Below are positions 30,209 to 62,292 of a stretch of DNA of 64,000 nucleotides, one piece after another. Within the stretch, counting starts at the first letter, position 1. Every line of letters starts with the position of its first letter. The stretch is from IMG/VR virus record IMGVR_UViG_3300027804_000053; one strand, written 5' to 3'. The DNA is from a virus (lineage: Duplodnaviria > Heunggongvirae > Uroviricota > Caudoviricetes). The position numbers and the translations under genes were made by a program. The notes below the pieces were generated by a model. The model worked only from the letters and a program-made list of their open reading frames with translations, did no database searches and was not told the origin of the DNA.

Positions 30209-30439
30209 ATGATTGACAATACAGAATGGGTCAATGGACCCTCTCACTACGGTGGAAAGGAAAACCCATACGAAGTAATTAAGGTTTGTGAAGCTTGGGA
30301 GCTCGACAAAGACGCTTATTTATTCAACGTGGTCAAATATGTCGCTCGAGCAGGAAAGAAAGACGTTTCTAAAGAAATCGAAGACCTCAAGAAAGCGGCT
30401 TTTTATTTGGATAGAAAAATTAAAAATTTAGAAAAATGA
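30209..30439 (+). CDS. DUF3310-like phage protein
   Basis: GPSHYGGKENPYEVIKVCEAWEL...FNVVKYVARAGKK...IEDLKKAAFYL matches the conserved SHY...KY..RAG.K pattern of a phage-restricted family, as I recall it. Confidence 0.45.
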   Translation: MIDNTEWVNGPSHYGGKENPYEVIKVCEAWELDKDAYLFNVVKYVARAGKKDVSKEIEDLKKAAFYLDRKIKNLEK

Positions 30440-30876
30440 TTATTTGGTTAACAGGCCAACCCGGTGCGGGTAAAACAACAATTTGTAAAAAAATTTTACT
30501 TAGAGATGCCAGTTTTTTCCACATCGATGGAGATGACCTTAGAGATTTATTTGAAAACAAAGACTACTCTGAACAAGGTAGAAGAAAAAACATTGAGTTA
30601 GCACAACAAATTGCTCAGTATCTCACAAACAAGGGTGAAGATGTATTAGTATCTTTGGTTTCCCCCTATAAAGACCAAAGAGATAAATTCAAAGAAAAGA
30701 TGGGGGATAAATTGGTGGAGGTTTATATACATACTTCTGAAAAAAGAGGAAGAGAAGATTTCTTCGTTAAAGAATATGGACAACCAACCGAAAATTACCT
30801 TGACATCGACACAACAAATGAAAGTGTTGAGGACTCAGCTAAAAAAGTATTAGAATATGCAAAAATTTCACGTTGA
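30436..30876 (+). CDS. adenylyl-sulfate (APS) kinase-like P-loop kinase
   Basis: IIWLTGQPGAGKTT P-loop is of the APS-kinase type. Downstream FHIDGDDLRDLF ... SEQGRRKNIELAQQIAQYL ... VSLVSPYKDQRDK parallels CysC motifs (DGDNVR..., ...SEADRNENIRR..., SFISPY..DRD). Confidence 0.5.
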   Translation: MIIWLTGQPGAGKTTICKKILLRDASFFHIDGDDLRDLFENKDYSEQGRRKNIELAQQIAQYLTNKGEDVLVSLVSPYKDQRDKFKEKMGDKLVEVYIHTSEKRGREDFFVKEYGQPTENYLDIDTTNESVEDSAKKVLEYAKISR

Positions 30877-31258
30877 AGGAGACCCAAAATTGAAGAACAC
30901 GGGGGGTAAACAATACTCTATGTTCGTGGGAAGATTTCAGCCTTTTCATGGGGGTCACAAATGGATTGTGGATGAAATTATAAAAGAAGGTAAAAATGTT
31001 CTAATTTGTATTAGAGACATTGAACCAGATGAAAAAAATCCGTTCACCGCACAAGAAGTTGAGACAAATATTAAGAAGGAACTTTGGCAACTTATTGGTG
31101 AGGAAAGGGTTAAAGTAATTACGATTCCTGATATCGAATCAGTAAACTTCGGCCGAGGAGTTGGATATGATATCATTGAACATGTACCACCTCAAGAAGT
31201 TCATGATATTTCTGCAACGAAAATACGTGAACAAATGAGACAGGAAGGAAAATTATAA
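30857..31258 (+). CDS. nucleotidyltransferase of the HxGH cytidylyl/adenylyltransferase superfamily, NMN adenylyltransferase (NadM)-like
   Basis: FVGRFQPFHGGH is the GRFQPFHxGH motif of archaeal/phage-type NMNAT. 133 aa. Confidence 0.55.
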   Translation: MQKFHVEGDPKLKNTGGKQYSMFVGRFQPFHGGHKWIVDEIIKEGKNVLICIRDIEPDEKNPFTAQEVETNIKKELWQLIGEERVKVITIPDIESVNFGRGVGYDIIEHVPPQEVHDISATKIREQMRQEGKL

Positions 31259-31329
31259 TGGAAAATATTTTTCAATTTACTGGACTTAGTGGAAAAAAAT
31301 CATTAGAATTGAATTATTAAACTGTTATA

Positions 31330-32193
31330 ATGGAAAATTTTTTAGGAAATATAATAAATGGTGATTGTATAATTGAGATGGCTAAAATGCCTGAAAACTC
31401 TATTGACCTTATTGTTACTTCACCACCCTATGGAGTGGGTATTGAATATGATTCATTTGATGATGATATGAACATAGAGGACTACAAAGACTTTTCAAAG
31501 AAATGGCTCACCGAGGCTTATAGAGTTCTGAAGGCGGATGGTAGAATTGCTCTTAATGTTCCTTATGAAATCAATCGACAGGATAAAGGAGGTAGAGTTT
31601 TTATTGCCTCTGAACTTTGGCAGATTATGCAAAGAATTGGTTTTAAATTTTATGGTATTGTGGATTTAGATGAAGATTCTCCACATAGAAGTAAGACAAC
31701 GGCTTGGGGTTCATGGATGTCTCCTTCTGCACCTTACATCTACAATCCGAAAGAGTGTGTTATCTTGGCTTACAAGTCTAAACATATTAAGATTGTTAAG
31801 GGAGAACCCGAGTGGGTTGGGGTGATTGATGAGATTGAACAAGAGGATGGAACGAAAAAGAAAAAAACTCTCTATACTGAAGAACAGAAGAAAGAGTTTA
31901 TGGATTTGGTTTATGGACAGTGGACATATTTTGCAGACACTAAACAAATGACCAAAGCAACCTTTTCCTTGGACATTCCAATGAAAGCTATGAAGATACT
32001 CACTTACAAAAATGACGTCGTTTTAGACCCTTTCTGTGGTTCTGGTACAACTCCAGTTGCGGCAGTAATATCAGGAAGAAACTGGGTAGGTATTGAACTC
32101 AGTCCGAACTATTGTGAAATTGCTAAAAAGAGAGTTCAACAATTTATCGATAAAAAGAAACAATCTAAATTAGATTTTGAAGAAGGGGTTTAA
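31330..32193 (+). CDS. DNA methyltransferase, beta-class amino-MTase (N6-adenine or N4-cytosine)
   Basis: Motif IV IVTSPPYGVG lies N-terminal to motif I LDPFCGSGTT, the beta-class order. ParB-less stand-alone MTase. Confidence 0.7.
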   Translation: MENFLGNIINGDCIIEMAKMPENSIDLIVTSPPYGVGIEYDSFDDDMNIEDYKDFSKKWLTEAYRVLKADGRIALNVPYEINRQDKGGRVFIASELWQIMQRIGFKFYGIVDLDEDSPHRSKTTAWGSWMSPSAPYIYNPKECVILAYKSKHIKIVKGEPEWVGVIDEIEQEDGTKKKKTLYTEEQKKEFMDLVYGQWTYFADTKQMTKATFSLDIPMKAMKILTYKNDVVLDPFCGSGTTPVAAVISGRNWVGIELSPNYCEIAKKRVQQFIDKKKQSKLDFEEGV

Positions 32194-32611: not shown

Positions 32612-32907
32612 TGGCAAAAAAAATTGTAAGACTAACCGAAGGTGACTTAATTAATCTTGTAAAAAGGGTTATCTCTGAACAAAAAAAATTCGAACTATTC
32701 ATGAATCCTGGTCAAACAGCTGAGGCAGAATTGATTGGAGACATATTGACTATTTTTTCTCAAATGGGGAAAGACCAAATCTTTAAAGTAAAAACATCTT
32801 TACCAAAAGGTAAATTTATGTTTGAATTTTCAAAAGATGGAAAATATTACGGGTACGATAAGAGAGGGAAAAAACATGAAATCCTTTTGATAGAAAAAAG
32901 AAAATGA
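32611..32907 (+). CDS. hypothetical protein
   Basis: ORF track. Start overlaps the upstream stop. Confidence 0.4.
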   Translation: MAKKIVRLTEGDLINLVKRVISEQKKFELFMNPGQTAEAELIGDILTIFSQMGKDQIFKVKTSLPKGKFMFEFSKDGKYYGYDKRGKKHEILLIEKRK

Positions 32908-34328
32908 AAAAACTATTAAAAGAGTCTGGTTTAAGAGATATTTCGGCTTTGAGGAAAAGATACCCAAAAGCCGAAATTTATTTTCACCTTGACCTTGATG
33001 GGGTGACCACCGCAATTGCAATGAAAAAATACCTTGAGGACAATGGTATCAAGGTCGTTGGAGCACATACCATTCAATATGGGGACAAGGAATTTGCAGT
33101 TAAAAAGTTGGATGCTGAAGGTGATACAATGCCAGTGCTCGTAGATTTCGCACACGGTAAACCGATGTTTGTTATTCATACTGACCACCACGATAGGCAG
33201 GTTGGTGCAGAACCTGAGGCTTCTAAATCATTCAGACAAGCCCGTTCGAACGTTGAAACAATATCTCAAATTGTTTCACCTAAGGAAATATTTCCAACCG
33301 CTGATATACTTTTAATCAGTACTGTAGACTCAGCTAACTTTTTGAAACATGAAATCACACCAGAGGATGTTGTAAATTATATCTTTAGATTAGATAAAGA
33401 TAAGACCCTTCAGAAAAATAAAATGTTACTTGGGTTGGTTATCAACAAACTGATTTTAGCTTTCAAAAACCGAAAAGGGTTTATGGAGAGTTTGGTTATG
33501 GACTCAGAACCCTCCCTCATGTCTATTTTCAATAACATCAAGAAATGGATGAAAATGACAAGTGCTGAAGACTTCGCTACTCTCCAACAGAGGTCCGATG
33601 ATTACTTGGAACAAATGAAAAAATATCCCAAGGTAAGAGTAGAAGACGGAATAATTTTTCAGTATGGTGCGGGAAGTATGAAGTCAGGTTCTTACGATAG
33701 ATACACTCCTTTCAGAGTAAATCCGAATGCGGACTTTTTAATTCTAATGTGGCCGATGGGACTTTTACAAGTCTCATGTAACCCTTTCAAAAAAGATAGA
33801 AAGTTGAAAGGAGTTAATTTGGGAGAGATGGCTCAGGACGTTCTGAAACCTTTTGAAAGCCAACTCAAATCAAGAACAATCCCCCTTTCGACAATCAAAT
33901 GGTTAAGTGAAATATCAACCAAACCAGGTGATGTTGGATTTACATTCAAAGACTTCAATGCCCTTTTCGGTGGTAAAATTGCATTTATTGATGGGGGTAA
34001 CGAAATTTTAGATAGAATAAAACCCATGATGGACAAACCTTTTTCAGAACTCAAAGAAGAAGAAAAACAACTTTTGGACAAGATTGGAATTAATATGTGG
34101 GATTTTATTCAATCTAACTCAGGAGGACACAAGTGTATCACGAATATTTCAGGTCTAAATTTTCTTGGAAGAAAGACAAGACCATCAGAGGACCCATACA
34201 GATACGACCCTGACAAGCCAGATGTTCCGTATATTAAATTCATGAAACAACTCGGAACAAAATTTTTCAATATACTGAAAGAAAAAATTCAAGAGGAACA
34301 ACAAAAAGAAAAAGAAGTGTCAAATTAA
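32904..34328 (+). CDS. DHH-family phosphoesterase (NrnA/RecJ-like)
   Basis: HLDLDGVTTAIAM (DHH motif I, DxDGxxS/T). VDFAHG. HTDHHD (DHH motif III). 474 aa, consistent with DHH plus DHHA1 architecture. Confidence 0.6.
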   Translation: MKKLLKESGLRDISALRKRYPKAEIYFHLDLDGVTTAIAMKKYLEDNGIKVVGAHTIQYGDKEFAVKKLDAEGDTMPVLVDFAHGKPMFVIHTDHHDRQVGAEPEASKSFRQARSNVETISQIVSPKEIFPTADILLISTVDSANFLKHEITPEDVVNYIFRLDKDKTLQKNKMLLGLVINKLILAFKNRKGFMESLVMDSEPSLMSIFNNIKKWMKMTSAEDFATLQQRSDDYLEQMKKYPKVRVEDGIIFQYGAGSMKSGSYDRYTPFRVNPNADFLILMWPMGLLQVSCNPFKKDRKLKGVNLGEMAQDVLKPFESQLKSRTIPLSTIKWLSEISTKPGDVGFTFKDFNALFGGKIAFIDGGNEILDRIKPMMDKPFSELKEEEKQLLDKIGINMWDFIQSNSGGHKCITNISGLNFLGRKTRPSEDPYRYDPDKPDVPYIKFMKQLGTKFFNILKEKIQEEQQKEKEVSN

Positions 34329-35489: not shown

Positions 35490-35562
35490 CGCATGGTAGT
35501 AGCAGCGGTAGCTCGCCAGGCTCATAACCTGGAGGTCGTCAGTTCGATTCTGACCCATGCAA
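35490..35562 (+). tRNA. tRNA-Met (anticodon CAU), initiator-like
   Basis: Hand-folded cloverleaf. Acceptor CGCATGG/CCATGCA with C1xA72 mismatch. Anticodon stem CCAGG/CCTGG with loop CTCATAA. Variable loop AGGTC. T arm GTCAG-TTCGATT-CTGAC. Discriminator A. The D arm is non-canonical (3 bp AGC/GCT, loop AGCGGTA). CCA is not encoded. Confidence 0.55.
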
Positions 35563-35569
35563 CGAAAAA

Positions 35570-37693: not shown

Positions 37694-38257
37694 TTGTATC
37701 ATAAAAGAAAAGATATGTTTGACAAACTCATTGACCTAATCGTTACTTTTATTAATGACATTTTACCTTGGAAAATCGTAGACCAATGGGAACAAGGAGT
37801 TCATCTTAGAACCGGAAAGTTTCTGAGAGTAGTTCTTCCTGGTTTGAACTGGAAAATCCCTTTTTTTGACCAAATTTTAACTACTCCTGTCATTACCCAA
37901 ACGGTAAACTTAAAACCTCAAACGGTGACATCCTTGGATGAAAAAAGTGTCGTTCTTTCGAGTATTGTCCGTTATCACATTGATGACGTTGAAAAATTTC
38001 TCTTGGGCGTAATGCACGCGAATGATGTTTTAATTGATACAACACAAGGTATTATTCGAGACGTGGTAGAAAGCTCAAATTGGAGTGACCTTTATGAACT
38101 TGGTAACACCGTTACACCGGCTGTTAATAATGAAGTTGAAAAGTGGGGTATTGTGGTGGAACAAATAAGCTTTCCTGATTTAGGAGAAATTGTAACTTAT
38201 AGAATTATGGGAGACTCTTATAAAAATCCATCAGGAATTTTGCCGGTAATGGAATAA
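37694..38257 (+). CDS. SPFH/band-7 (stomatin/prohibitin/HflKC-like) domain protein
   Basis: VHLRTGKFLRVVLPGLNWKIPFFDQILTTPVITQTVNL ... SIVRYHIDDVEKF ... WGIVVEQISFPD follows the SPFH core pattern. Confidence 0.5.
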   Translation: MYHKRKDMFDKLIDLIVTFINDILPWKIVDQWEQGVHLRTGKFLRVVLPGLNWKIPFFDQILTTPVITQTVNLKPQTVTSLDEKSVVLSSIVRYHIDDVEKFLLGVMHANDVLIDTTQGIIRDVVESSNWSDLYELGNTVTPAVNNEVEKWGIVVEQISFPDLGEIVTYRIMGDSYKNPSGILPVME

Positions 38258-40491: not shown

Positions 40492-40567
40492 CTTAAAAAT
40501 TTCATTTCTTTTAAATAAATACCTTTCTTTTATAGAAGTAAGATTGTATTTTTTTAAAAAAAAGTTT

Positions 40568-41147: not shown

Positions 41148-41153
41148 TAAATA

Positions 41154-41753
41154 ATGAATGTCAATTTTCACGAATCCTACAACGTTTCCGAAAAATATAA
41201 ATCATTGGTTTGGTTACCTGAAAGAACAGGTTCGCGTACATCTGCGAAGTTTCTAACAAATTATGGTTTCGAACGCGGAGAAGTTCCACTTATCAACGGT
41301 AAATGGTGGGTATACACTCATTATTGTGGAATGAATGAAAGATTCAACGACTATACTTTGATATCCACCGCTAGAAATCCATATTCGAGGGTACTTTCCA
41401 TCTATCTTTCTCTTACAGGTTTTCCTCCTGAATATAAAGGGAATACAAAAGAGACTTTCAGGGAATATCTCAAATGGGTTCAAAATCAGGATTACGATGA
41501 CCTCACTAAGGCATACATAACGAATCCAAGGTTAAAAGTTAGACCAAATTATTTATTGAAACTTGAAAATTTACTTGAGGATTATATGAAATTACCCTTC
41601 ATCCTTGATGTTTTCACGTTTGATGAGATTACTGAAAAACTTAAACATAAGAAACCACCTTATGATTGGGAACCTTATTATGATGAACACATGAAAAATA
41701 TCGTTTACGATTTATGTGCTCATCATTTTGAGATTTGGGGTTATGAAAAATAA
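41154..41753 (+). CDS. sulfotransferase-family protein (paralog A)
   Basis: WLPERTGSRTS is the 5'-PSB-like motif (PKTGTT-type). TARNPYSRVLS is the 3'-PB-like motif (RxxxxxxxS). Paralog of ORF 52087, with the same order and spacing of motifs and a similar C-terminal W/FGY(E/D) end. Confidence 0.55.
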   Translation: MNVNFHESYNVSEKYKSLVWLPERTGSRTSAKFLTNYGFERGEVPLINGKWWVYTHYCGMNERFNDYTLISTARNPYSRVLSIYLSLTGFPPEYKGNTKETFREYLKWVQNQDYDDLTKAYITNPRLKVRPNYLLKLENLLEDYMKLPFILDVFTFDEITEKLKHKKPPYDWEPYYDEHMKNIVYDLCAHHFEIWGYEK

Positions 41754-41814
41754 TTAAAGTTTTTTTTGTTGGTATTTCGGAAACTCATATTTTTGTGTAA
41801 CAAAACACAAAACC

Positions 41815-44084: not shown

Positions 44085-44420
44085 ATGAAGAGAGAATTGG
44101 TTTCAGAAGAATCAATGATTAATGATATTTTGGAGAATTTTGATTGGGAAAAGTGTGTAAAAACAATGAGGGCTCTTAACTGGACTTGGGCTCTTGTTGG
44201 TTTTCCTCAAATTCACAATTTGAAAGAAACGGCGAAACATCTCCTTAATAGTTCTATCCAAGGTGTTAAAGAAAAAGATATAAATTTTCACTCATCATAT
44301 TTCAGTGCCACAGGAGGACTAAAGGCAACAGCTTGGAAAAATAGGTTCGGACAAGTGGTTGGTATTAACTTAGAATTTGTTGTTACTGATTGGGAAAGTG
44401 ATGGAGATTATCACGAGTAA
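44085..44420 (+). CDS. hypothetical protein
   Basis: ORF track. Confidence 0.4.
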   Translation: MKRELVSEESMINDILENFDWEKCVKTMRALNWTWALVGFPQIHNLKETAKHLLNSSIQGVKEKDINFHSSYFSATGGLKATAWKNRFGQVVGINLEFVVTDWESDGDYHE

Positions 44421-44459: not shown

Positions 44460-45707
44460 ATGATTACAAAAAAGCCAAGTGCAATCATCTACGGATGGTA
44501 CAAATTAGGTGAAGAAGTTTTAGAAAGTAACATCTATACCGAAGAGGGTTTATGGGATGAAGTTATGGTTTTTTCTTTACCGGACTCATCGAGTTGGTTA
44601 GAAGATTACACCAAATATAGACCAGACCTAATAATTTCGTTCGGTAAAAAAATAGATTTACCACATTATCAATTACAAAGAATACATTCACATTTTGATG
44701 AACCTCTTAATGATTATGAACTTGCAAATGAAATAGTGAAAAACGCGGTTTATAAATCTTGTGAAGTTCAAAGACCAAGGTTTTCAATTTTTACTCCTGT
44801 TTACAAAACAGGTGAAAGAATTAAAAGAACCTATAAAAGTCTTCAAAATCAAAAATGGACTAATTGGGAATGGGTTGTTGTTGACGACTCTCCTGATGAG
44901 GAAACTTGGAAATTACTCGTTGAAATCTCAAAAAAAGATTATAGAGTAAAGCTTCATAGAATTTATCCCACTTCGGGTGGAATTGTTGGATTAGCTAAGA
45001 ACAGAGCGGCTTCTCTCAGTGATGGAGACTGGTTGGTTGAATTAGACCATGATGATTATTTGACAAGTGATTGTTTATCAACTTGTAATGCTGCAATAGA
45101 AAAACATCCTGATTCTGGGTTTTTATATTCAGACGTCGCTGAGCTTTACGATGATGGTGAAATGAAACATTATGACCATGATTGGACAGGAAATTGGTAT
45201 GCCCGCCACGACAACTATTTTGATTTCGGTTATGCGGGACATAGTTGGGTGAAAGTAGACGGAACGGATATATTGGCTCATTGGTATCCAGATATCAATC
45301 CTTTATCTATTAGATTCAATATTTCAATGCCGAACCATGTAAGGATGTGGGAAAGGAATTTCTATCATTCAATCGGAGGTCATAACAAGACAACGCCCGT
45401 TGCTGATGACTTTGAAATTATTATAAGAAGTTTTCTTCATACAAGAATTATACACGTAAAAAAATGCTTGTACTTACAATACAACAATAGAAATAGCACA
45501 GTTGATAATAATGCAACAGATATAAACCGAAGAGCCCGTCTCATAAGAGATTATTATGATGAGGCAATTCATAACCGTATACTTGAGCTTGGGTTCAAAG
45601 ATTGGAATTGGGATGAAGAAACAAAACATTCACAAAGATTTCAAAACAGAGTTCCCATTAGAAAGTATTACAAAGAAGAAGAAGTAATGAACTACATTTA
45701 TGAGTAA
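44460..45707 (+). CDS. glycosyltransferase family 2
   Basis: FSIFTPVYKTGERIKRTYKSLQNQKWTNWEWVVVDDSPDE is the GT2 N-terminal signature with a DxD-type VVDD. Confidence 0.6.
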   Translation: MITKKPSAIIYGWYKLGEEVLESNIYTEEGLWDEVMVFSLPDSSSWLEDYTKYRPDLIISFGKKIDLPHYQLQRIHSHFDEPLNDYELANEIVKNAVYKSCEVQRPRFSIFTPVYKTGERIKRTYKSLQNQKWTNWEWVVVDDSPDEETWKLLVEISKKDYRVKLHRIYPTSGGIVGLAKNRAASLSDGDWLVELDHDDYLTSDCLSTCNAAIEKHPDSGFLYSDVAELYDDGEMKHYDHDWTGNWYARHDNYFDFGYAGHSWVKVDGTDILAHWYPDINPLSIRFNISMPNHVRMWERNFYHSIGGHNKTTPVADDFEIIIRSFLHTRIIHVKKCLYLQYNNRNSTVDNNATDINRRARLIRDYYDEAIHNRILELGFKDWNWDEETKHSQRFQNRVPIRKYYKEEEVMNYIYE

Positions 45708-46851
45708 GAAAACAAAAATTTGTTTGAATGCAATGGTTGGAAATGAGTCCAAAACCATTTTGAGGATGTTAGAATCCGCTGAACCGTACATTGACTATTG
45801 GGTTATCCAATGTAATGGAAATGACAACACAGAAAAAATTATTCAAGATTTTTTCAATAGTAAAAACAAACCTGGTTTTACTTATCAAATTGAATGGAAT
45901 TTTCCTGGTTGGAATAGAGACCACACCTTACAAACATGTTTGAAGTCTGACCATGGATGTGATTGGATTCTAAGAATGGACGCTGACGAAAGGTTACACG
46001 TTGACCCTGATTTTGATTGGAGTGTCTTGGAAGATACATCAATAGACAGTTTCAACATGGTTGCTCAGAATGGTGAACTAAGATATCTCAGAACTTGGTT
46101 TTGGAATGCTAAAAGACCATGGTTCTTCCAACACGATAAACGTCATGAAACAATTCATCTTCCCGAAATTGGTGAAGGATTTGTAAGAATTACAATGCCG
46201 AGTGGTTTTAGGCATCTTGTATCTCAGGACGGTGAAACATGGGCTGCACCGAGAAAGTTTCTCAAAGATGCGTTGGAACTTGAAATGGACAAGGTGGTTG
46301 GTAACACCGTCCTTGAGGACCCTTATCATTTGTGGTATATTGCAAAAAGTTACTCTGATTGTTACGGAGACTTTTCACAACTTCCTTTCGGAAAAAAACA
46401 CGCTGACGAATATGCTAGAAGAAGTGTTTGGTATTACGATAGATGGTTCGAATATAATTTCCAATGGGATATTACCAAAAGTGTAACAAGACTTGATGAA
46501 ATGGGATATTTCGCACTAATAATGATGGCTCACGCGTATGAATTTATGGGTGAAATTGAAAAATCCCTCCAATACATGAATAAAGCTGGAGAGTTCGCAC
46601 CCAACAGAAATGAACACTTAATATATGCAAATTTCATTTTGGAAAAATTAGAGAGATTTGATGAGATATTGAAAAATATTGAATATATGGTTCAACCTGA
46701 AAGAAAAAATCCTTTCCCTAACTCTTCTTTCTTAATTGAGGATAGAGCTTATGCGAACACAAGTAATTATTTGTTTGAATATAGAGAAAAAATAATTAAA
46801 AGGATGGAAACTCCTATCATAGATAATTCAAGTTTCAAATTCGAATTCTAA
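45700..46851 (+). CDS. glycosyltransferase-like protein (GT-A fold, tentative)
   Basis: ICLNAMVGNESKTILRMLESAEPYIDYWVIQCNGNDNT resembles a GT2/SpsA-like N-terminus. Overlaps the upstream stop. Sits between GT2 and glf. Confidence 0.4.
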   Translation: MSKKTKICLNAMVGNESKTILRMLESAEPYIDYWVIQCNGNDNTEKIIQDFFNSKNKPGFTYQIEWNFPGWNRDHTLQTCLKSDHGCDWILRMDADERLHVDPDFDWSVLEDTSIDSFNMVAQNGELRYLRTWFWNAKRPWFFQHDKRHETIHLPEIGEGFVRITMPSGFRHLVSQDGETWAAPRKFLKDALELEMDKVVGNTVLEDPYHLWYIAKSYSDCYGDFSQLPFGKKHADEYARRSVWYYDRWFEYNFQWDITKSVTRLDEMGYFALIMMAHAYEFMGEIEKSLQYMNKAGEFAPNRNEHLIYANFILEKLERFDEILKNIEYMVQPERKNPFPNSSFLIEDRAYANTSNYLFEYREKIIKRMETPIIDNSSFKFEF

Positions 46852-47943
46852 ATGTATGATTTTTTGATAGTCGGAGCGGGCCCTTTTGGGTCCGTTTGCG
46901 CATATGAACTGAACAAGGCGGGAAAAAAATGTTTGGTCATAGATAAAAGAAATCATATCGCGGGAAATTGTTATACCTCAAACCAAAATGGAATACACGT
47001 TCATCAATACGGTGCTCATATCTTTCATACCAACGATGACAAAATATGGAATTACGTAAACCAATTCGCTTACTTCAAACAGTATTGTCATAATGTAATT
47101 GCAAATTATAAAGGTCAAATGTTCACCTTACCATTCAATATGTGGACATTCAATCAACTTTGGGGTGTAAATTCTCCTGAAGAGGCCAGTCAAATTATAA
47201 AAGGCCAGTCTTTTTCAGGTAAAATTACTAATTTGAAAGAACAGGCAATCTCAATGGTGGGTTTTGACATCTTCGAAAAATTAATAAGAGGTTACACTGA
47301 AAAACAATGGAACACCTCTTGTGAAAATTTACCACCATCAATAATTAAAAGATTACCTGTAAGATATACTTGGGACTCAAATTATTTTGATGACAAATAC
47401 ACAGGTATACCTGTTGGAGGATATACTCAAATCTTTGAAAAAATGTTAGAGGGAGTTGAGGTAAGAACTTCCACAGATTACTTCGAGAACAAAGAATACT
47501 TCGACCAAATTGCTGATAAAATAATTTACACTGGACCCATCGACAAATTCTACAATTACGAATTTGGAAAATTAGGCTACAGGAGTTTGGAATGGTCTAC
47601 TCACACTTTAGAAACTGATAATCATCAAGGTGTACCTGTTGTCAATTATACTGACGAAGAAACACCATATACTAGAATACTTGAACACAAATGGTTTGAC
47701 TACCAAAAACAAAAGGGCACAATCGTAAGTTATGAATATCCAACAAACTATACTGGTCGTAATGAACCCTTTTATCCTATAAGAGATGAGGAAAATACAA
47801 AAATCTATCTCAAATATGAAAATCTTGCAAACAATGAAACCAAATTCATATTCGGTGGACGTTTAGCAAGATACGTTTATTACGACATGCACCAAATCAT
47901 TGCACAGGCGTTGAAAAAAACAGAAGAACTTCTACAGAACTAA
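46852..47943 (+). CDS. glf: UDP-galactopyranose mutase
   Basis: YDFLIVGAGPFGSVCAYEL (FAD-binding GxGxxG). HQYGAHIFHT. 363-aa length and overall pattern typical of Glf. Confidence 0.7.
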   Translation: MYDFLIVGAGPFGSVCAYELNKAGKKCLVIDKRNHIAGNCYTSNQNGIHVHQYGAHIFHTNDDKIWNYVNQFAYFKQYCHNVIANYKGQMFTLPFNMWTFNQLWGVNSPEEASQIIKGQSFSGKITNLKEQAISMVGFDIFEKLIRGYTEKQWNTSCENLPPSIIKRLPVRYTWDSNYFDDKYTGIPVGGYTQIFEKMLEGVEVRTSTDYFENKEYFDQIADKIIYTGPIDKFYNYEFGKLGYRSLEWSTHTLETDNHQGVPVVNYTDEETPYTRILEHKWFDYQKQKGTIVSYEYPTNYTGRNEPFYPIRDEENTKIYLKYENLANNETKFIFGGRLARYVYYDMHQIIAQALKKTEELLQN

Positions 47944-47954
47944 TATTTATAGTT

Positions 47955-48365
47955 ATGAAACTGAAGTTGAAGAATACAAAAAATTATTTTTCCGACTTGG
48001 AAAAAAAAACATTGGAAGACTTTTCCAAATTTTTACAAAAACAACTCCCACTAAATAAAGAAACTCACATCTCTTTCGAGAAAAATAGGCTTGAAGGGAA
48101 CATGACAACAGGTGTTCGGTTACCGAAAAACAACATTCATATATTGGCTAAAGACAGACTATTGATTGATATCTTAAGAACTTTATCACACGAGTGGGTT
48201 CATGAGTTTCAACATCAGAAATTAGGTTTGAAGGACACCACTGAAATTCAAAACATCGGTGGACCCGAGGAGAACATGGCAAATGTTCTTTCAGGTATAT
48301 TTCTGAAACAATTCATTAAAGATTTTCCTCAACACAAAGCAGCCGTCTTCGGAGAACTTGACTAA
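47955..48365 (+). CDS. small putative metallopeptidase-like protein (HExxH)
   Basis: LSHEWVHEFQH contains HEWVH plus an additional His. Confidence 0.35.
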   Translation: MKLKLKNTKNYFSDLEKKTLEDFSKFLQKQLPLNKETHISFEKNRLEGNMTTGVRLPKNNIHILAKDRLLIDILRTLSHEWVHEFQHQKLGLKDTTEIQNIGGPEENMANVLSGIFLKQFIKDFPQHKAAVFGELD

Positions 48366-52686: not shown

Positions 52687-52707
52687 TTTTTTCAGTATAT
52701 TTGTCCC

Positions 52708-53004: not shown

Positions 53005-53638
53005 TATGAAAGAATTTAGGAGAAAGTATGTTGGTGGACTGGATTTGATTTGGGACCTGAATAACATTGTTGGTAAAGGAGTTGGTGCGGAAGTTGGAGT
53101 TTATCGTGGCGACCTTTCCAAAGAGATTTTGAGACTTTGGGATAATGGAACAATGTTCTTAATCGACATTTGGAGAAAAATCGGAGAAGAATACACAGAT
53201 GTTTGCAATGATGATGAACAACTTGGTTATATGATGGAAGTCTGTGAAGTAATAAAGGGGAATGAAGATAGGGCAAACCTAATAAGAGCTACCTCCGAAA
53301 CCGCTTCAAGTTTGTTCCAAAATGAATCTTTAGATTTTGTTTATATTGATGCTAATCATTCCTATGAACACGTAAAAAAAGATTTAGAACTTTGGTTTCC
53401 CAAAGTTAAGAAGGGTGGAATTTTTGCGGGTCATGATTATATCAATATCGATTGGTATGGTGATAATAATTTCCTTCCCAATAAAAAAGACAAACATATG
53501 TATAATATCCACGGAGGTAAAATGTATTATAGTGGTGTGTTCGGAGTTAATCCTGCGGTTGATGAATTTTGTGAAAAGTACGGATATGAATTAGATGTAA
53601 CAACCGAAATTTGGGGAACTTGGTGGATAGTAAAATAA
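52994..53638 (+). CDS. class I SAM-dependent O-methyltransferase, TylF/MycF-like
   Basis: GVGAEVGVYRGDLS matches the TylF-family G-x-x-V-E-x-G-V-x-R-G-x-S motif. Acidic motif FVYIDANHSYEHV. Confidence 0.5.
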   Translation: MKNNMKEFRRKYVGGLDLIWDLNNIVGKGVGAEVGVYRGDLSKEILRLWDNGTMFLIDIWRKIGEEYTDVCNDDEQLGYMMEVCEVIKGNEDRANLIRATSETASSLFQNESLDFVYIDANHSYEHVKKDLELWFPKVKKGGIFAGHDYINIDWYGDNNFLPNKKDKHMYNIHGGKMYYSGVFGVNPAVDEFCEKYGYELDVTTEIWGTWWIVK

Positions 53639-53645
53639 TTTTATT

Positions 53646-53834
53646 ATGGGAGAAAGAATAGACGGGATATACATTCCTCTTAAAGTTGGTGAGACCATTT
53701 ACACAGGGAGATTCAAGAATAAAAAAACAACTGTCAAAACAATAGGTGTTGATGAACACGGTATGCCCACCGTCAATGGAAAACCTGTTATGAATTTCAG
53801 AAAAACTCCACCAAATCAGAAACGTTCCAAATGA
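53646..53834 (+). CDS. hypothetical small protein
   Basis: ORF track. Confidence 0.3.
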   Translation: MGERIDGIYIPLKVGETIYTGRFKNKKTTVKTIGVDEHGMPTVNGKPVMNFRKTPPNQKRSK

Positions 53835-54124
53835 AGTGATACGGGAACACCTGTAAATACATAAATTCTTTGCCAGATATCGTCTAAAATTTCGTCCGTT
53901 TGACTTGGTAAAATATTAGGTTCAACTTTTAATGTGAAAGTTACATTGTTATTTGAAATTGTTAATTCATAACCCTTTACCCATTTTGGAAATTTAGGTG
54001 GAAGACCTTTTAAAAATCTCTTAGCAACCTCGTATTCACTTTCAACATTCTCAATTAAGAGACTAATTTGACTTTTTTTGAGAATGTATTTCATATTGAA
54101 TAAATACTTATTGATATGAATCAA
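53816..54124 (-). CDS. hypothetical protein
   Basis: Reading frame verified codon by codon against the track translation. TTG start per the track. Confidence 0.4.
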   Translation of the reverse strand: MIHINKYLFNMKYILKKSQISLLIENVESEYEVAKRFLKGLPPKFPKWVKGYELTISNNNVTFTLKVEPNILPSQTDEILDDIWQRIYVFTGVPVSLHLERF

Positions 54125-54373
54125 AACGAAAAACTCAAACTTGTGAGAAATTTTGTTGACAAAATAAAAATGCCCGGTGTCTGTGGGTTTTTAGTTTTAC
54201 AAGGTGACGATGTTCAAGTTATCATCAAGGTGGATATGGAATGGATGAGGGAAGTTCAGGCTCGTCCAGAGTTTATTGCAAAAGGGATGAGGGCTATGTT
54301 AGAGAAAAATATTAAAGATTATTTAGGAATGGAAGTTTTTGTTGGGTCTGTGGGGTTTGATAAGTGTGATTAG
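54116..54373 (+). CDS. hypothetical protein
   Basis: ORF track. Confidence 0.4.
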   Translation: MNQNEKLKLVRNFVDKIKMPGVCGFLVLQGDDVQVIIKVDMEWMREVQARPEFIAKGMRAMLEKNIKDYLGMEVFVGSVGFDKCD

Positions 54374-55938
54374 AAACTGAAAAAATCTCCGATTGAAGGA
54401 ATTTTATCAGAGCGATAATCTACTTTCTTAATAAATTCTCCTTTACTGTTATAAAGTTTTCCTTTCTCTCTTTCTTCCCAATTAAATTGATAAAGAAATT
54501 CGTCACCCCTTTTGGAAGAAAATATAAAAGTCCAATCTCCAGTTGGGCGTTCATTTTTAAACTGTCCCTCCGCCTTTATTGAGCCATCAGGTTTGAAAAT
54601 TGTCCATTTCCCTGTTTTCCTACCTAAAGTAGTTAATTGGCCGATGGCTTTTGGGGTACCACTTGGATAGAAAATAATTATTTTACCCCTGAAATCTTGT
54701 GTTCCACCGTCAGCAATTACTTTGATAACACCACTTTGAGTTATGCCGGTGACTGGAATTCTGTCATCATCAAAGTCTTTGATAACATAATAAATACCAA
54801 AAGGAGTGTAACGATTGTGAATTTTCCAAATCCCAATTTTTTTCCCTTTTTCATCGTACTTTCCCTTTTTTTCGATTGTTCCGTCATCAAAAAAACTTTC
54901 GTATTCTCCAACCCAATTATAATCAGACCTAGTTTCCCTCAGCGTTCCCTTTTCTGAAATCTTTCCGTTTTTTGAAAATAGGATTACTGGTCCGTTTCTC
55001 TTGTTATTAACGTAAGTGAGTATTCCATCTATCTTACCATCGTGAAAAGATTTCCAAATACCTTGTTTCCCTTTTTCATTTTCAAAACCCTTTCCTTCAA
55101 CAGGTATGTCGAATTCTAAATTTGATGCGATTTTTTCATAATTGTAGTATTCGGACTTTTCCGAAAGCCACTTATAAAAAATTTGAGGTATAAAATTAAA
55201 TCTCTCCACATCGTTTTTATTCATGAATTGTTGGCTTTCTACATGAAGTTGATATGGCGACAATGGGTCGTTGAGATTGAAAAGAACAATATATTTTGAG
55301 CCTTTATCAGATTTCAAATAATCCTTAAAGTAGTTAAAATGTGCAATTGTACAAATTTCGATTGAAGCTCCCTTCTCGCGTCCCTTACATCTACCCAACA
55401 AATCACGATAAACTTTCCAATTTTCTCTTGTGGGTTCTGAAATTTCGAAAACTTGGTAACCATCAGAGCCAGCAGCTTTTAGACCATTTTCGGGTTTCCA
55501 AAAACCAAGATACTTGTTTCCTCCCGTGGAGGTGAGTTTCTCAACTTCGTTTTTTGAAAGAAATGCCGAGGATTGAGGAATATCCTCATATTTGACGTCT
55601 CCTTCTTTAATTTGAATAACAGTTTCGATGAAGTTTTGTAAATCCTCTGCTGTCTTGTAAAGATTAAGGTCCTGAAATTTGAATTTCTTTTTATTCTTTT
55701 CAAAAATATCAATATACTCTTTCCACTTATATAGGTCTTCAGATTTCAAGAGGTTCGTGCCAATTTTTTTTGTAAGCCAAGCAAGAATATAAAACTTACC
55801 GTGAGAGAGGTCTTGAATTTTTTGAAACTCCTCGTCTTTGAGGGGTTTTCCTTCTCCAACATATTTGTCTTTAAGTTGTTGTATTTGAAGAGCCAAATCT
55901 TCCAATAAAATAGTTCTTAGGTTTTGAGATATACTCAT
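54370..55938 (-). CDS. MORN-repeat protein
   Basis: C-terminal two thirds contain repeated G-x-(W/Y)-x-x-(F/Y)-x-x-G-K-x-x-x-x-G units (GKQGIWKSFHDGKIDG, GKKIGIWKIHNRYTPFG, GKWTIFKPDGSIKAEG, PTGDWTFIFSSKRGDE). ATG at 55938. Confidence 0.5.
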   Translation of the reverse strand: MSISQNLRTILLEDLALQIQQLKDKYVGEGKPLKDEEFQKIQDLSHGKFYILAWLTKKIGTNLLKSEDLYKWKEYIDIFEKNKKKFKFQDLNLYKTAEDLQNFIETVIQIKEGDVKYEDIPQSSAFLSKNEVEKLTSTGGNKYLGFWKPENGLKAAGSDGYQVFEISEPTRENWKVYRDLLGRCKGREKGASIEICTIAHFNYFKDYLKSDKGSKYIVLFNLNDPLSPYQLHVESQQFMNKNDVERFNFIPQIFYKWLSEKSEYYNYEKIASNLEFDIPVEGKGFENEKGKQGIWKSFHDGKIDGILTYVNNKRNGPVILFSKNGKISEKGTLRETRSDYNWVGEYESFFDDGTIEKKGKYDEKGKKIGIWKIHNRYTPFGIYYVIKDFDDDRIPVTGITQSGVIKVIADGGTQDFRGKIIIFYPSGTPKAIGQLTTLGRKTGKWTIFKPDGSIKAEGQFKNERPTGDWTFIFSSKRGDEFLYQFNWEEREKGKLYNSKGEFIKKVDYRSDKIPSIGDFFSF

Positions 55939-55952
55939 AAACAATAAATACC

Positions 55953-56289: not shown

Positions 56290-56664
56290 ATGTGGCAAGC
56301 AAACGTAACAATTATAAACAATACTGAGTATAACTTGAGTATTGAAGGTGTTGGACCTGGTAACACAACCATCGGTTCGAATAGCCAAACATCTTGGTCT
56401 TCTTCAGAAATTCATAATACTAAGTCATTACTTTTTTGGGATACACCAAATGTATGGTATATGCAGGGTAATCTTTCATTTGGTCCTGAAGCTGGTGTGT
56501 ATGTTGATAGAGGTTGGATGGCAGAGAATGACCAAACTATCAAAATGGTCTCGGTTGCTAACGGTAAATCTTGGACACAAACTCAAAATGGTGGTGAAAC
56601 TCTTTTAGCTTGGAATGAATTTGAAGAGGGCGGTGACATCGAGTTAACATTCGAAAAACAATAA
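56290..56664 (+). CDS. hypothetical protein
   Basis: ORF track. Confidence 0.4.
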   Translation: MWQANVTIINNTEYNLSIEGVGPGNTTIGSNSQTSWSSSEIHNTKSLLFWDTPNVWYMQGNLSFGPEAGVYVDRGWMAENDQTIKMVSVANGKSWTQTQNGGETLLAWNEFEEGGDIELTFEKQ

Positions 56665-58025
56665 TGAATTTACTCAAAACCATAAAAAATATTATTGTTG
56701 AAAAAAAGGAACCAGAGTATGCGGTAATCCAAATTTTACCAGCACTATCCTATATGAATGATAGATATCGTTTTCAATTGGTTCCTTATCTGGCAACTCA
56801 AAGAGATTTGATTTATATAAACAAGGGGTCCAGTGGTCATAAATCAATTTCAACCAAGAACATAAAAATTATTGACACGGGAAATAAAGAAAAAATGGAA
56901 ACTCTTCTGAAGAAAATGCAAGAAGAAGGAAACCGTTCAGCGAAATGGATTAAATGTAAAAATTGTAAACAAAGGTTCACACAAACTATTCATAAAGGAA
57001 AAAAGTCAAAGCCCATTTGTCCTGTTTGTGGAACCCATAACACTGAGGAACTTTTAGGAATTAATGAATCAGAAAAAGTAAAACCTCATGGTTATTGGAC
57101 AATCGAAAAAATATCAGAGGAGATAGAAAAATATAAAACTTTGAATAATTTCATTAAATCAAGTCCCTCTGCATACAAAGCCCTTATGAAATTTGGTAGA
57201 GAAGTATTTGAAGAAAAAACCAAAAACCTGTCAAGACACCTAACCTTTTATTCTAAGGAAGAACTGGCAGATATTGCAAAAAGATTTAGAACAAGAATTG
57301 ATTTTGCTCGTGGGGACAGAAAAGCATACAATCAGGCACTGCGTAAGGGTAGAGAATTTTTTGACCAAATTACTGCACATATGGAAAGAATTGGTAATTT
57401 ATACAAAAGATATGTCTACACATTTGAATTTTCTGATAATACTGCGTATGCTGGATTAGCCAAAGACCCGAAAGAAAGATATGTGGAACATATGTTCAAG
57501 GGTCCTGTTCGTGATTACATGATAAAAACAGGACTTGTTCCGAAATTTGAAATCAAGACCTCCACAATGATTGATGCCGAAGATGCCGCACTGCTCGAAA
57601 AAAAGATATGGAACGAATATCTTCAAAGAGGATGGAATGTTCTTAACAAAGTATCACCTGGTGGATTGGGTGGACGTTCAGATTACAAATGGACAGATGA
57701 TTTATTAAACGCTGAGGTGGCAAAGTATTCTACTTTGAGAGATTTCATGGTTCAATCACCAAACGCTTACAAAACGGCACATAAAAGGGGAAAAGAATAT
57801 TTTCAAAATCTCACTAAAGATTTACAAAAGGTTTATACAAGACAAACTCTCGAGCAGATAATAAAAGAACTTCAAAATTATCCCACTTTAGAAATTTTAA
57901 GAAAGAAAAATGATAGTTTGTATAATAAACTATCGAGAAGAAAATTACTTTTCGTATTTTATCCAAAAGAAAATCAAGGAAAATTAGAGACGAACGTTGA
58001 TTTGAAAAATTTCCCAAACTTATGA
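56664..58025 (+). CDS. GIY-YIG nuclease-domain protein with N-terminal zinc ribbon (homing-endonuclease-like)
   Basis: CKNCKQ...CPVCG zinc ribbon. YVYTFEFSDNTAYAGLAKDPKERYVEHM fits the GIY...YIG...R...E spacing. Confidence 0.5.
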   Translation: MNLLKTIKNIIVEKKEPEYAVIQILPALSYMNDRYRFQLVPYLATQRDLIYINKGSSGHKSISTKNIKIIDTGNKEKMETLLKKMQEEGNRSAKWIKCKNCKQRFTQTIHKGKKSKPICPVCGTHNTEELLGINESEKVKPHGYWTIEKISEEIEKYKTLNNFIKSSPSAYKALMKFGREVFEEKTKNLSRHLTFYSKEELADIAKRFRTRIDFARGDRKAYNQALRKGREFFDQITAHMERIGNLYKRYVYTFEFSDNTAYAGLAKDPKERYVEHMFKGPVRDYMIKTGLVPKFEIKTSTMIDAEDAALLEKKIWNEYLQRGWNVLNKVSPGGLGGRSDYKWTDDLLNAEVAKYSTLRDFMVQSPNAYKTAHKRGKEYFQNLTKDLQKVYTRQTLEQIIKELQNYPTLEILRKKNDSLYNKLSRRKLLFVFYPKENQGKLETNVDLKNFPNL

Positions 58026-60444: not shown

Positions 60445-60737
60445 CTCAAATAATGACCTTTGTTTCTTAAGTTTTTGTGAGACCTAAAAATGATTGCATA
60501 GTCATCTTTTTCACCAAGACCAATCATATCAATTAAACCCGATGCTTTTTTGTGTATTTCGTGCATCATAACACTATCGACCCATTCGTAACTACCTTCT
60601 TTAATGACAAAGACAATTTCATAAAAGCGCTTAGGACCAACCTCACCATATTTCTTACTGAACACATAGTCAAATTCAGAGCATTGAGGTATGAGCATTT
60701 TATTAAACACGCAATCTATTTGTTCTCGAAGGTCCAT
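60441..60737 (-). CDS. small hypothetical protein
   Basis: ORF track. ATG verified. Stop overlaps the downstream start. Confidence 0.4.
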   Translation of the reverse strand: MDLREQIDCVFNKMLIPQCSEFDYVFSKKYGEVGPKRFYEIVFVIKEGSYEWVDSVMMHEIHKKASGLIDMIGLGEKDDYAIIFRSHKNLRNKGHYLR

Positions 60738-60857
60738 CCCAGCAAATATACAAAAATAAATTGTGAACTGTCAAGAAATCCTTGTCGGTTCCTTCTCCTT
60801 AGAGAAGTATACACCTAACAACAAGTACTTACCATCATTTAGCATGTCAAATTATTA

Positions 60858-61616
60858 TCAAGAAAGAGTAATCAATTCCCACTTGTTTTCTTTAGTAAGA
60901 ACAAGTGCGGAGAAATTTTCGACCCAATCTCCTGAGTTATAATAAGTTACCCCATTAATTTTTTTTATTGACGGAATATGGATGTGACCACAAACAACAA
61001 TATCTGCGTTTTTTGTTTTTGCATATTCACAAGCGTTAACTTCAAAATCATTGATAAAACTAATGGCATCTTTAACATTTTCCTTGATAATTTTGGATAT
61101 AGAAAAATAAGGTTTACCCATTTTATTTCTATAATCATTGTACCAAGTATTAACACGAAGAGCAATATCATAACCCACGGAGCCTATGTAAGATAAGAAT
61201 TTATATTTAACGGTCACATCTATTTTATCACCGTGGAATACAAAAACTTTCTTGGTACCGAAGTTATCATCTTCACCTAACCATACACTTTGATAATAGG
61301 TATAATCCTCAACGAACTTTATATTACCCAAATCAAATTCAAATAAGTCTTCCAAATCATTATCATGATTTCCGCGGATATATATAACTTCTGTGTGACG
61401 ACTTATATCCAATATTTTCATTAAGACTTTTGTATGTTTGTTTTTCCACTTGCTGCCACGTTTAAGAGCATCAATATCAATGATATCTCCGTTTAGAATC
61501 AGAAGTTCCGTTTCGATGGAATTTAAAAATTCCAATATCTTTTTTGGTGAGCTATCTTTCATTCCGAGGTGAAGGTCGGACATGATAACAACTTTATACC
61601 CAGTAATTGTGTTCAT
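60858..61616 (-). CDS. calcineurin-like metallophosphoesterase, LpxH-like
   Basis: VVIMSDLHLG (motif I). LNGDIID (II). IYIRGNHDN (III). VFHGDK. VVCGHIH (V). The C-terminal YYNSGDW matches the LpxH-type end. Confidence 0.55.
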   Translation of the reverse strand: MNTITGYKVVIMSDLHLGMKDSSPKKILEFLNSIETELLILNGDIIDIDALKRGSKWKNKHTKVLMKILDISRHTEVIYIRGNHDNDLEDLFEFDLGNIKFVEDYTYYQSVWLGEDDNFGTKKVFVFHGDKIDVTVKYKFLSYIGSVGYDIALRVNTWYNDYRNKMGKPYFSISKIIKENVKDAISFINDFEVNACEYAKTKNADIVVCGHIHIPSIKKINGVTYYNSGDWVENFSALVLTKENKWELITLS

Positions 61617-62292
61617 TTTTAAAAAACTCAGGATTGTCTTTATTAACAGCAGAAAGAACCGCCATTTTTAGCATGTACCACAAACCTTTTTTCTTGAACC
61701 TTCTATCTGTGGTATATATTTTTTTATTATAAACTCCAAATTTTGATGGGTGAACTTTTGAAGATAGATGAAAGTCTTCGGCAAATAAATCCTCATTAAT
61801 AAAACCTCCAAGTTTATCAAAAACTTCTTTATCGAACATCATAAAACCACCAATTGCACATGGCAGGTGATGAGAATAAAAATCTCTGAACCATTCAAAT
61901 ATAGGGAAGACCAATGAATATTTCCCACGAGTTCGGAATCTACAAGTAACAAGATAAAGTGAATTATTAATCATATAATTCAAAGAGTTATCTATTGTCT
62001 CATTATCATGTAAGAAAATATCTGCATCCAAGAAAAGAACATATGGTGTATCAACAAGTTTTGCTCCATTGTTTCTTGCTACAGATGGGAAACCTCCGTC
62101 AATTATTTCAACGTTGAGATGGGGACAATAGGTGTTGTTAATTATTTCTCTTGTAAGGTCATCTGATGAATCAGCGATGATTACCTTCGTCCCGTGGATG
62201 TTGATTTGTTTATCCAAATACTTCAACGTAAATGAAATCAAATCCCTTTCGTTTTTACAAGGGATTACAATGGTTAGAATATCTTTTATCAT
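61594..62292 (-). CDS. glycosyltransferase family 2
   Basis: IVIPCKNERDLISFTLKYL...KVIIADSSDD...FLDADIF has the GT2 signature with DxD. Confidence 0.55.
   Translation of the reverse strand: MIKDILTIVIPCKNERDLISFTLKYLDKQINIHGTKVIIADSSDDLTREIINNTYCPHLNVEIIDGGFPSVARNNGAKLVDTPYVLFLDADIFLHDNETIDNSLNYMINNSLYLVTCRFRTRGKYSLVFPIFEWFRDFYSHHLPCAIGGFMMFDKEVFDKLGGFINEDLFAEDFHLSSKVHPSKFGVYNKKIYTTDRRFKKKGLWYMLKMAVLSAVNKDNPEFFKNEHNYWV

Follow-up and report, generated by a model that had tools for sequence, protein, structure and literature searches.

A candidate sulfation system with a putative PAPS supply of its own in a large uncultured phage genome

Introduction

Sulfate is activated by two known types of enzyme, Sat and CysDN. 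To our knowledge, ATP sulfurylase is the only nucleotidyltransferase that partners adenosine 5'-phosphosulfate (APS) kinase, often as a fusion and in either order. Here we analysed a stretch of 64,000 nucleotides of a phage genome (Caudoviricetes; IMG/VR record IMGVR_UViG_3300027804_000053), called "the window" throughout, in which an APS-kinase-like gene overlaps the gene of a small nucleotidyltransferase and two further genes encode sulfotransferase-like proteins. The layout of the pair recalls the bifunctional synthases of 3'-phosphoadenosine 5'-phosphosulfate (PAPS), namely bacterial and fungal Sat-CysC and animal PAPSS1/2, where an adenylyltransferase of the HxxH/HIGH superfamily and a P-loop APS kinase are likewise adjacent or fused, in both orders. 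The pair differs from these synthases in that the adenylyltransferase has only about 115-133 amino acids (about 390 in Sat), has no PUA-like domain, QxRN or GRDHAG, and is nearest in sequence to nicotinamide mononucleotide adenylyltransferases (NMNATs), its activity being a prediction, and in that the kinase of the window is without most of its lid. We lean towards the reading that the phage encodes a sulfation system of its own, made up of sulfotransferases and a PAPS supply in which the nucleotidyltransferase is a candidate ATP sulfurylase of non-canonical type.

Genes annotated as belonging to the sulfotransferase family are found in phages phiRSL1 (Ralstonia), P-SSM7 (Prochlorococcus) and ACG-2014f, S-PRM1 and S-SRM01 (Synechococcus), as well as in Mimiviridae and pithoviruses, and published work notes the phage genes as auxiliary metabolic genes without a clear function (PMC10580990, PMC8290583). 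An earlier note on this DNA, made from its letters alone, had called phage sulfation essentially undescribed, which was an overstatement. The window proteins resemble those annotated in other viruses as virus-encoded proteins of sulfotransferase fold, and differ from them in coming with a candidate PAPS supply of their own. Our incomplete survey of the literature turned up neither the kinase-nucleotidyltransferase module nor its fusions, and likewise no NMNAT-like ATP sulfurylase and no PAPS supply of a phage coupled to sulfotransferases. With sulfotransferase genes a common annotation in phages by now, what is new here is the pairing of kinase and nucleotidyltransferase, with its candidate non-canonical first enzyme.

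Results

The kinase and the nucleotidyltransferase

The genes of the pair and the two sulfotransferase genes are the following:

30436..30876, + strand: short-lid APS-kinase-like P-loop kinase, 146 amino acids (Pfam APS_kinase)
30857..31258, + strand: HxGH nucleotidyltransferase, 133 amino acids, candidate sulfate adenylyltransferase (CTP_transf_like, 1.9e-7)
41154..41753, + strand: minimal soluble sulfotransferase, paralog 1, 199 amino acids
52087..52686, + strand: minimal soluble sulfotransferase, paralog 2, 199 amino acids; its start overlaps the stop of a umuC-like gene

The earlier note had matched the kinase to adenylyl-sulfate kinase, and this was borne out. Against the Pfam profile APS_kinase (PF01583) it scored 68.8 bits (gathering score 21.1; profile positions 4-112 of 152), and each of its 19 best solved-structure matches was an APS kinase (E ~1e-11). 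When aligned with three solved APS kinases, the P-loop (GQPGAGKTT) and D31-G32-D33 were invariant, and R36, Y44-S45, R49, N52 and S76-P77 fell on their counterparts; these correspond to the Arg after DGD, the aromatic-Ser pair, the Arg..Asn pair and the Ser-Pro pair that we take, from APS kinase structures, to contact APS. A SPY..RD motif was also found. The protein thus shares with CysC (PF01583/TIGR00455) the P-loop, the DGD motif, the phosphosulfate-contacting arginines and the SP motif, and differs from it in its length of 146 amino acids, in a profile match that stops at position 112, in a score under the equivalog cut-off and in its lid, where the canonical KGLYK...FTG is cut to RGREDFF and most of the mobile lid is missing. 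Judged by these comparisons, the kinase is related to APS kinases and has a lid that is cut short. Its homologs in metagenomes number more than 5000.

The nucleotidyltransferase gene, which overlaps the stop codon of the kinase gene, was absent from the gene list of the earlier note. That note had proposed a search for sat or cysDN elsewhere in the genome: no window open reading frame (ORF) is both left unexplained and big enough for a canonical Sat or CysD/CysN, and it is the ORF adjoining the kinase, at 30857-31258, that provides a candidate. Its ATP-binding motifs GRxQPxHxGH (GRFQPFHGGH in the window) and ISxTxxR are kept. H31-G-G-H34 is invariant, the HxxH motif being generic to the nucleotidyltransferase superfamily, and invariant residues specific to this family are R53 and G99-R100-x-V-G-Y (GRxVGY; GRGVGY in the window).

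The nearest solved relative is an archaeal NMNAT, and the similarity covers only the N-terminal, ATP-binding two thirds (residues 21-95, or profile positions 7-79 of 118 when the search was run with a family profile). The protein shares GRxQPxHxGH and ISxTxxR with archaeal NadM, which holds its best solved relatives. It departs from NadM in the C-terminal third, which determines the acceptor and is unmatched here, in an NMN-binding region about 25-30 residues shorter than in NMNAT, in R53 and GRxVGY, and in a genomic context of sulfur and polysaccharide genes rather than NAD genes. Against NF002243 it scored 48.6, far under the cut-off of 127, with no full-length NadM match. ATP sulfurylases carry QxRN and GRDHAG as sulfate-site signatures, together with a PUA-like N-terminal domain; none of these, and no extra domain, occurs in the 133 amino acids. 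An AlphaFold2 model had a pLDDT of 64, with residues 96-124, the family-specific region, below 50, and was left out of the fold search.

Synteny and fusions of the pair

We compared 80 viral loci anchored on the kinase, some of them on near-identical contigs so that the counts are not independent: the nucleotidyltransferase gene lay 3' of the kinase gene in 80/80, overlapping it in 60. Among cellular genomes, a close homolog of the kinase turned up in just six chromosomes, all of Marinimicrobia (SAR406/Fidelibacterota), and each of the six has the two genes adjacent or overlapping. A search of 1.8 billion cluster representatives retrieved 1,419 proteins related to the nucleotidyltransferase, and the family comprises no fewer than 1,400 clusters at 50% identity. 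Among the best 150, 31 were fused to an APS-kinase domain, in both domain orders, and the fusions include full-length canonical APS kinases with intact lids (family best E 9.5e-69); in one of them, P0291, the APS kinase part scored 169.7 bits over profile positions 2-152 of 152. In addition, phrog_10255, a fusion too, spans both proteins, and gp32 of Xylella phage Salvo is a kinase-nucleotidyltransferase fusion. Clearly, then, the kinase and the nucleotidyltransferase are a functional unit.

Some further observations concern the pair and its surroundings. Salvo gp32 (L120; NC_042345, 13822-15913), an APS-kinase-like::nucleotidyltransferase protein, is annotated only as "kinase". Other fusion partners of the nucleotidyltransferase, found among P0383, P0398, P0314 and P0341, are Methyltransf_11, DHHA1, DUF6717 and the membrane domain DUF2061. 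A gene for a 2OG-Fe(II) oxygenase separates the kinase and nucleotidyltransferase genes at 8442-9197 in L001-L003 and in several further loci (gap of 771 nt). An N6_N4_Mtase gene (31330-32193 in the window) is always syntenic with the pair across the phage lineage. The Marinimicrobia proteins (L114-L119; genomes of 28-30% GC) share 44-49% identity with the window kinase and 54-60% with the nucleotidyltransferase. The Marinimicrobia kinase start is overlapped by the gene of a 350-amino-acid protein (L114 8952-10004; homologs in L115-L118), possibly another component of the module, which had no Pfam or solved-structure match.

The sulfotransferase paralogs

The earlier note had recognised two sulfotransferase paralogs by their 5'-phosphosulfate-binding and 3'-phosphate-binding motifs, and the comparison upheld this. 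The two proteins match each other by BLASTP (E 2e-13, 25% identity), a hidden Markov model of the family finds paralog 2 at 6e-65, and the window holds exactly two copies of the family. Across 21 sequences, P22, T25, G26 and S27 of the 5'-phosphosulfate-binding loop (PERTGS in paralog 1, PPKTGS in paralog 2) and R74, N75, P76 and S82 of the 3'-phosphate-binding motif (RNPYSRVLS and RNPFTKLVS, respectively) are invariant, as is H56. A paralog model adopts the sulfotransferase fold. The Pfam profile Sulfotransfer_2 matches 10 of the 21 family members (best 4.4e-6). On the strength of these motifs and of the model, the paralogs are probably sulfotransferases that would transfer sulfate from PAPS. 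Compared with the enzymes of Sulfotransfer_1/2/3 (SULTs, TPST, HS 2-O/3-O/6-O-ST, Stf0/Stf9), they are among the smallest at 199 amino acids, and they score below the Pfam gathering scores; their acceptor may be a sugar, a tyrosine or a small molecule.

A profile scan of bacterial and archaeal species genomes found no relative of the family, and neither the cultured-phage collection nor PHROGs contained a sequence match. In relatives the family occupies at least four genomic sites, including both sites of the window, and tandem pairs occur, for instance at the paralog 2 site in L028-L030. Two other genes are kept beside paralog 1 in relatives, one for an SPFH/Band_7 protein (37694-38257) and one, on the minus strand (39628-40650), for a protein of 340 amino acids whose N-terminus has a hydrophobic segment and which carries CxxCxGxG zinc-finger repeats of DnaJ type.

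Sulfotransferases beside the pair

Upstream sequence was sufficient in 49 phage loci, and 24 of these carry, no more than 3 kb before the kinase, one or two sulfotransferase genes of the same family. Although gene order is rearranged among the six Marinimicrobia loci, every one of them keeps Wzi and a strong Sulfotransfer_5 gene (1e-50) a few kb or less from the pair, and two of these loci add capsule-type genes (a Wzx-like flippase domain fused to a family 1 glycosyltransferase, GT1, and a further GT1). In Salvo, gp29, three genes upstream of gp32, is a weak Sulfotransfer_4 match, and gp30 is a NADAR-domain protein. Sulfotransferases thus accompany the pair repeatedly: the phage family and Sulfotransfer_5, which are unrelated to each other and both strongly supported, and a weak Sulfotransfer_4-like type. 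We also considered whether Salvo gp29 and the Marinimicrobia Sulfotransfer_5 proteins belong to the family of the window paralogs; alignment of the profile with hhalign was not significant, and we make no such claim. Taken with the conserved APS-binding residues of the kinase, the upstream sulfotransferases and the Marinimicrobia loci support the capacity for PAPS-dependent sulfation that the earlier note had suggested.

A possible PAP phosphatase

A further gene lies 1.6 kb downstream of the pair:

32904..34328, + strand: DHH/DHHA1-type phosphoesterase, 474 amino acids, motifs intact

The motifs are DLD (30-32), VLVDF (D81), DHH (94-96), VDSANF and SGGH (the GGH of DHHA1). Its score against Pfam DHH was 20.1 bits, under the gathering score, and it had no solved-structure match. 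In a methanogen, a DHH-family phosphatase that removes 3'-phosphoadenosine 5'-phosphate (PAP) is encoded beside the ATP sulfurylase and APS kinase genes (PMC10322725). Like the DHH-family PAP phosphatases (B. subtilis NrnA, M. thermolithotrophicus PAPP), the window protein has intact DHH/DHHA1 motifs and a gene near sulfate-activation genes; unlike them, it has 474 amino acids and shows no detectable match to solved DHH proteins. P0398 is a fusion of the nucleotidyltransferase to DHHA1. By analogy, the protein could be a PAP phosphatase, a lead and no more, and it could equally be a RecJ-like nuclease.

Glycan, methyltransferase and fibre genes

The genes of this group, with the fibre ORFs, are:

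13676..23302, + strand: three consecutive collagen-repeat fibre ORFs of about 1040-1110 amino acids each, GC-rich (up to 57%)
44041-44066: terminator-like hairpin just upstream of the 44085 ORF
44085..44420, + strand: conserved ORF, first gene of the glycosyltransferase operon, kept with the glycosyltransferase block in relatives
44460..45707, + strand: soluble family 2 glycosyltransferase (GT2), no transmembrane segment (Glycos_transf_2, 8.4e-20, 71.8 bits)
45700..46851, + strand: weak GT2-like N-terminal domain with C-terminal TPR (Glycos_transf_2, E 0.0014, 19.1 against a gathering score of 23.3; TPR_8)
46852..47943, + strand: UDP-galactopyranose mutase, Glf (GLF, 1.4e-73; NAD_binding_8)
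47955..48365, + strand: conserved ORF downstream of glf, syntenic in relatives at 52-58% identity
52994..53638, + strand: class I S-adenosylmethionine-dependent methyltransferase (Methyltransf_24, Pfam 9.1e-17)
60858..61616, - strand: calcineurin-like metallophosphoesterase, YfcE-like (Metallophos, 3.6e-15)
61594..62292, - strand: soluble GT2 (Glycos_transf_2, 6.1e-14, 52.7 bits)

The GT2, GT-like and glf genes form, with the two conserved ORFs, an operon (44085-48365) that is kept at 62-75% identity in relatives (65-75% for the GT2 at 44460-45707) and adjoins neither sulfotransferase. The Glf assignment of the earlier note held, with a full-length score of 406.9 against TIGR00031 (cut-off 303.75) and an FAD-binding Rossmann N-terminus. 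The same note had counted three GT2s, of which those at 44460-45707 and 61594-62292 (the latter TIGR04283-like, 72.6 bits, under the cut-off) stood, and the protein at 45700-46851 did not, its match being below the gathering score; a DAD motif is visible in its sequence, and its only solved-structure matches were TPR designs. A TylF-like O-methyltransferase had been proposed at 52994-53638, where we found Methyltransf_24 and no TylF family match, a match to phrog_2675 (annotated "DNA methyltransferase") at 6e-21 and no NCBIfam match. The supposed LpxH-like phosphoesterase gave no LpxH match: it is a generic Metallophos protein whose best NCBIfam match is the YfcE family, under its cut-off, with LpxG only at E 0.01. 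Its coordinates had been swapped with those of the neighbouring GT2 and are corrected above.

The giant collagen-like fibres reported in the same genome were confirmed; the first of the three ORFs (13676-17005), the one scanned, has a Collagen match of 2.9e-109 and, at its end, an intramolecular chaperone domain, Peptidase_S74 (7e-9). All glycosyltransferases and sulfotransferases are without transmembrane segments, and the scanned ORFs of the window yielded no flippase, polymerase or initiating transferase.

The genome and its other genes

The window has a GC content of about 33%. A megablast search of positions 40000-54000 and a tblastn search with the sulfotransferase found no match among cultured phages, and the kinase had only distant matches there (identity <=35%). 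The window is part of a large uncultured phage genome, because its IMG/VR relatives lie on viral contigs of up to 321 kb and cultured phages are all distant. The genes described above form no single cluster, being dispersed and interspersed with DNA methylase, UmuDC, SPFH and unassigned genes; the window also codes for DNA methylases, a tRNA-Met, a GIY-YIG protein and many ORFs without known relatives. Other features seen were:

1186-2328: 380-amino-acid protein with DUF5661 and a weak match to Gp23 (T4 major capsid, E 0.0012), which may be structural
7774-8631 and 31330-32193: two DNA methyltransferases, the second of N6_N4_Mtase type
35490-35563: tRNA-Met (CAT), single copy
49540-52090: row of a UmuD-like S24 peptidase, a flavodoxin-like NAD(P)H-quinone reductase and a UmuC-type Y-family polymerase
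54370-55944, - strand: 524-amino-acid MORN-repeat protein
56664-58025: 453-amino-acid protein, homing-endonuclease-like by zinc-ribbon and GIY-YIG matches that are weak and below threshold

The row at 49540-52090 resembles a phage-borne translesion synthesis set, its UmuD-like and UmuC-like proteins sharing 81-86% identity with those of relatives and the reductase about 59%.

Discussion

We propose that the 133-amino-acid nucleotidyltransferase would adenylylate sulfate to give APS, and that the translationally coupled short-lid kinase would phosphorylate the 3'-OH of APS to give PAPS, as its homology and substrate-binding residues suggest. The two soluble sulfotransferases, with their fold and PAPS-binding motifs, would pass the sulfate to acceptors, and the DHH/DHHA1 phosphoesterase may, as a lead, remove PAP, the inhibitory by-product. 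The idea that APS comes from the small nucleotidyltransferase, so that the pair acts as a split mini-PAPS synthase feeding the phage sulfotransferases, is argued by association, because ATP sulfurylase is the only nucleotidyltransferase known to us as a partner of APS kinase. Extending this to the whole family of 115-133 residues, we suggest tentatively, while leaning slightly against it, that these HxGH proteins, as relatives of NMNAT, are ATP sulfurylases of a third and miniature type, and that coupled or fused to an APS kinase they make a compact PAPS synthase. With the same reserve, its carriers would be a very abundant uncultured jumbo-phage lineage, phages such as Salvo, and Marinimicrobia capsule-type loci, where it would feed sulfotransferases.

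Several results weigh against these proposals. The enzyme activities of all module proteins are predicted only. The kinase, at 73.8, is under the NCBIfam equivalog cut-off of TIGR00455 (138.7) and is missing about 15-20 of the substrate-binding lid residues of canonical APS kinases. The nearest solved relatives of the nucleotidyltransferase are NMN adenylyltransferases of NadM type (E 1e-13 with the family profile), ATP sulfurylase is absent from the 60 best solved-structure matches of that profile, and the window protein has no match to the ATP-sulfurylase profile PF01747. Weak PF01747 matches in 29/150 relatives (best 6.4e-6) bring no relief: in the one case inspected (P0291) the match lies on a C-terminal ISxTxxR...W..P..V segment, the ISxTxxR segment is common to the superfamily, including NadD-type enzymes, and we therefore discounted these matches as not specific. 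Sulfotransfer_2 gives paralog 1 a score of 18.8 (gathering score 22; E 0.002) and does not match paralog 2. The window sulfotransferases are 10 and 21 kb away from the kinase, many phages, L122 for example, have the pair with no sulfotransferase nearby (25/49 loci in the comparison above), and the locus counts take in near-identical contigs and are not independent.

Some of these points can be turned into explanations of their own. The kinase could be genuine and use APS made by the Sat or CysDN of the host, the nucleotidyltransferase being an NMN adenylyltransferase for NAD+ salvage or reconstitution, unrelated to sulfate. Phages are known to encode NAD salvage enzymes, the protein has its closest solved and NCBIfam relatives in the NadM type and keeps both ATP-binding motifs, and the NADAR-domain gene of Salvo is two genes upstream of the fusion. 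We nevertheless hold this to be unlikely: the similarity is confined to the ATP-binding two thirds, at 48.6 for a cut-off of 127; the NMN-binding region is shortened, and R53 and R100 are invariant and family-specific; and an NMNAT offers no rationale for repeated fusion in two orders to canonical APS kinases or for a place in capsule and sulfotransferase loci. The distance of the sulfotransferases in the window, the listed genes being mixed with unrelated functions, and the 25 loci that have none nearby would also fit a sulfur-assimilation auxiliary set that boosts PAPS for host cysteine, with the sulfotransferase-like and glycan genes as unrelated accessories. This seems quite improbable given that about half of the relatives have a gene of the sulfotransferase family in the position preceding the kinase, that the pair co-localises independently with Sulfotransfer_5 (strong, Marinimicrobia) and Sulfotransfer_4 (weak, Salvo), and that no PAPS reductase was seen in the window.

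Least probable of all, in our view, is that the pair makes some other 3'-phospho-adenylylated compound, and that the sulfotransferase-fold proteins move another group or only bind. The truncated lid of the kinase, the C-terminal third of the nucleotidyltransferase, which is unlike any solved enzyme and modelled at low confidence, and the fusions to a methyltransferase, DUF6717 and DUF2061 speak for it; the phosphosulfate-binding residues of APS kinases are, however, conserved in the kinase, other members of the nucleotidyltransferase family are joined to canonical APS kinases that are complete with lids, and the sulfotransferases keep both PAPS-binding motifs.

If the phage does sulfate, the question becomes what it sulfates. 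Virus-encoded soluble glycosyltransferases glycosylate virions in giant viruses (fibrils) and in mycobacteriophages, and the window resembles these in its soluble GT2s and Glf and its large fibre proteins, although glycosylated or sulfated virion proteins are here a conjecture. The GT2s and Glf (44085-48365, 61594-62292) would build a galactofuranose-containing glycan, a plausible acceptor, on virion proteins or on polymers of the host envelope. Sulfation, galactofuranose, methylation and the collagen fibres are tied only by sharing a genome, and the fibres are a possible acceptor. Because tyrosine sulfotransferases are among the top fold matches of the paralog model, protein tyrosine may be another. 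Soluble enzymes and the lack of a flippase or polymerase mildly favour cytoplasmic acceptors such as virion proteins; by analogy, the capsule setting of the cellular homologs would favour an envelope polysaccharide. A variant that concerns the target only, in which sulfation and the galactofuranose glycan are aimed at a host envelope polysaccharide (capsule or O-antigen), blocking superinfection or altering the surface, and not at virion fibres, is a serious contender that we rate somewhat below probable. It draws on the capsule loci that hold the cellular counterparts of the module, and on two glycosyltransferases whose best PHROGs are classed as "moron, auxiliary metabolic gene and host takeover" (GtrB-like O-antigen conversion and beta-1,4-glycosyltransferase), both weak matches (2.7e-5, 3.7e-4). 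The missing transmembrane segments, flippase, polymerase and initiating transferase tell against it, as does the position of the module just downstream of fibre genes in relatives; neither is decisive.

Should the phage sulfation system with its candidate miniature sulfurylase be real, a third, tiny type of sulfate-activating enzyme would stand behind annotations such as "cytidylyltransferase-like" or "NMNAT", and sulfur metabolism in genomes and viromes would be read differently; the two genes would also offer biotechnology a compact PAPS supply. Salvo is a cultured phage on hand for testing the module. The resemblance of the pair to that of Marinimicrobia makes these bacteria a possible host or gene donor of the uncultured jumbo-phage lineage, and this sequence link gives a host hypothesis for it. 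If the system is real, an abundant group of large aquatic phages can sulfate molecules without depending on the host, and sulfation of the virion or of the cell surface would be directly testable.

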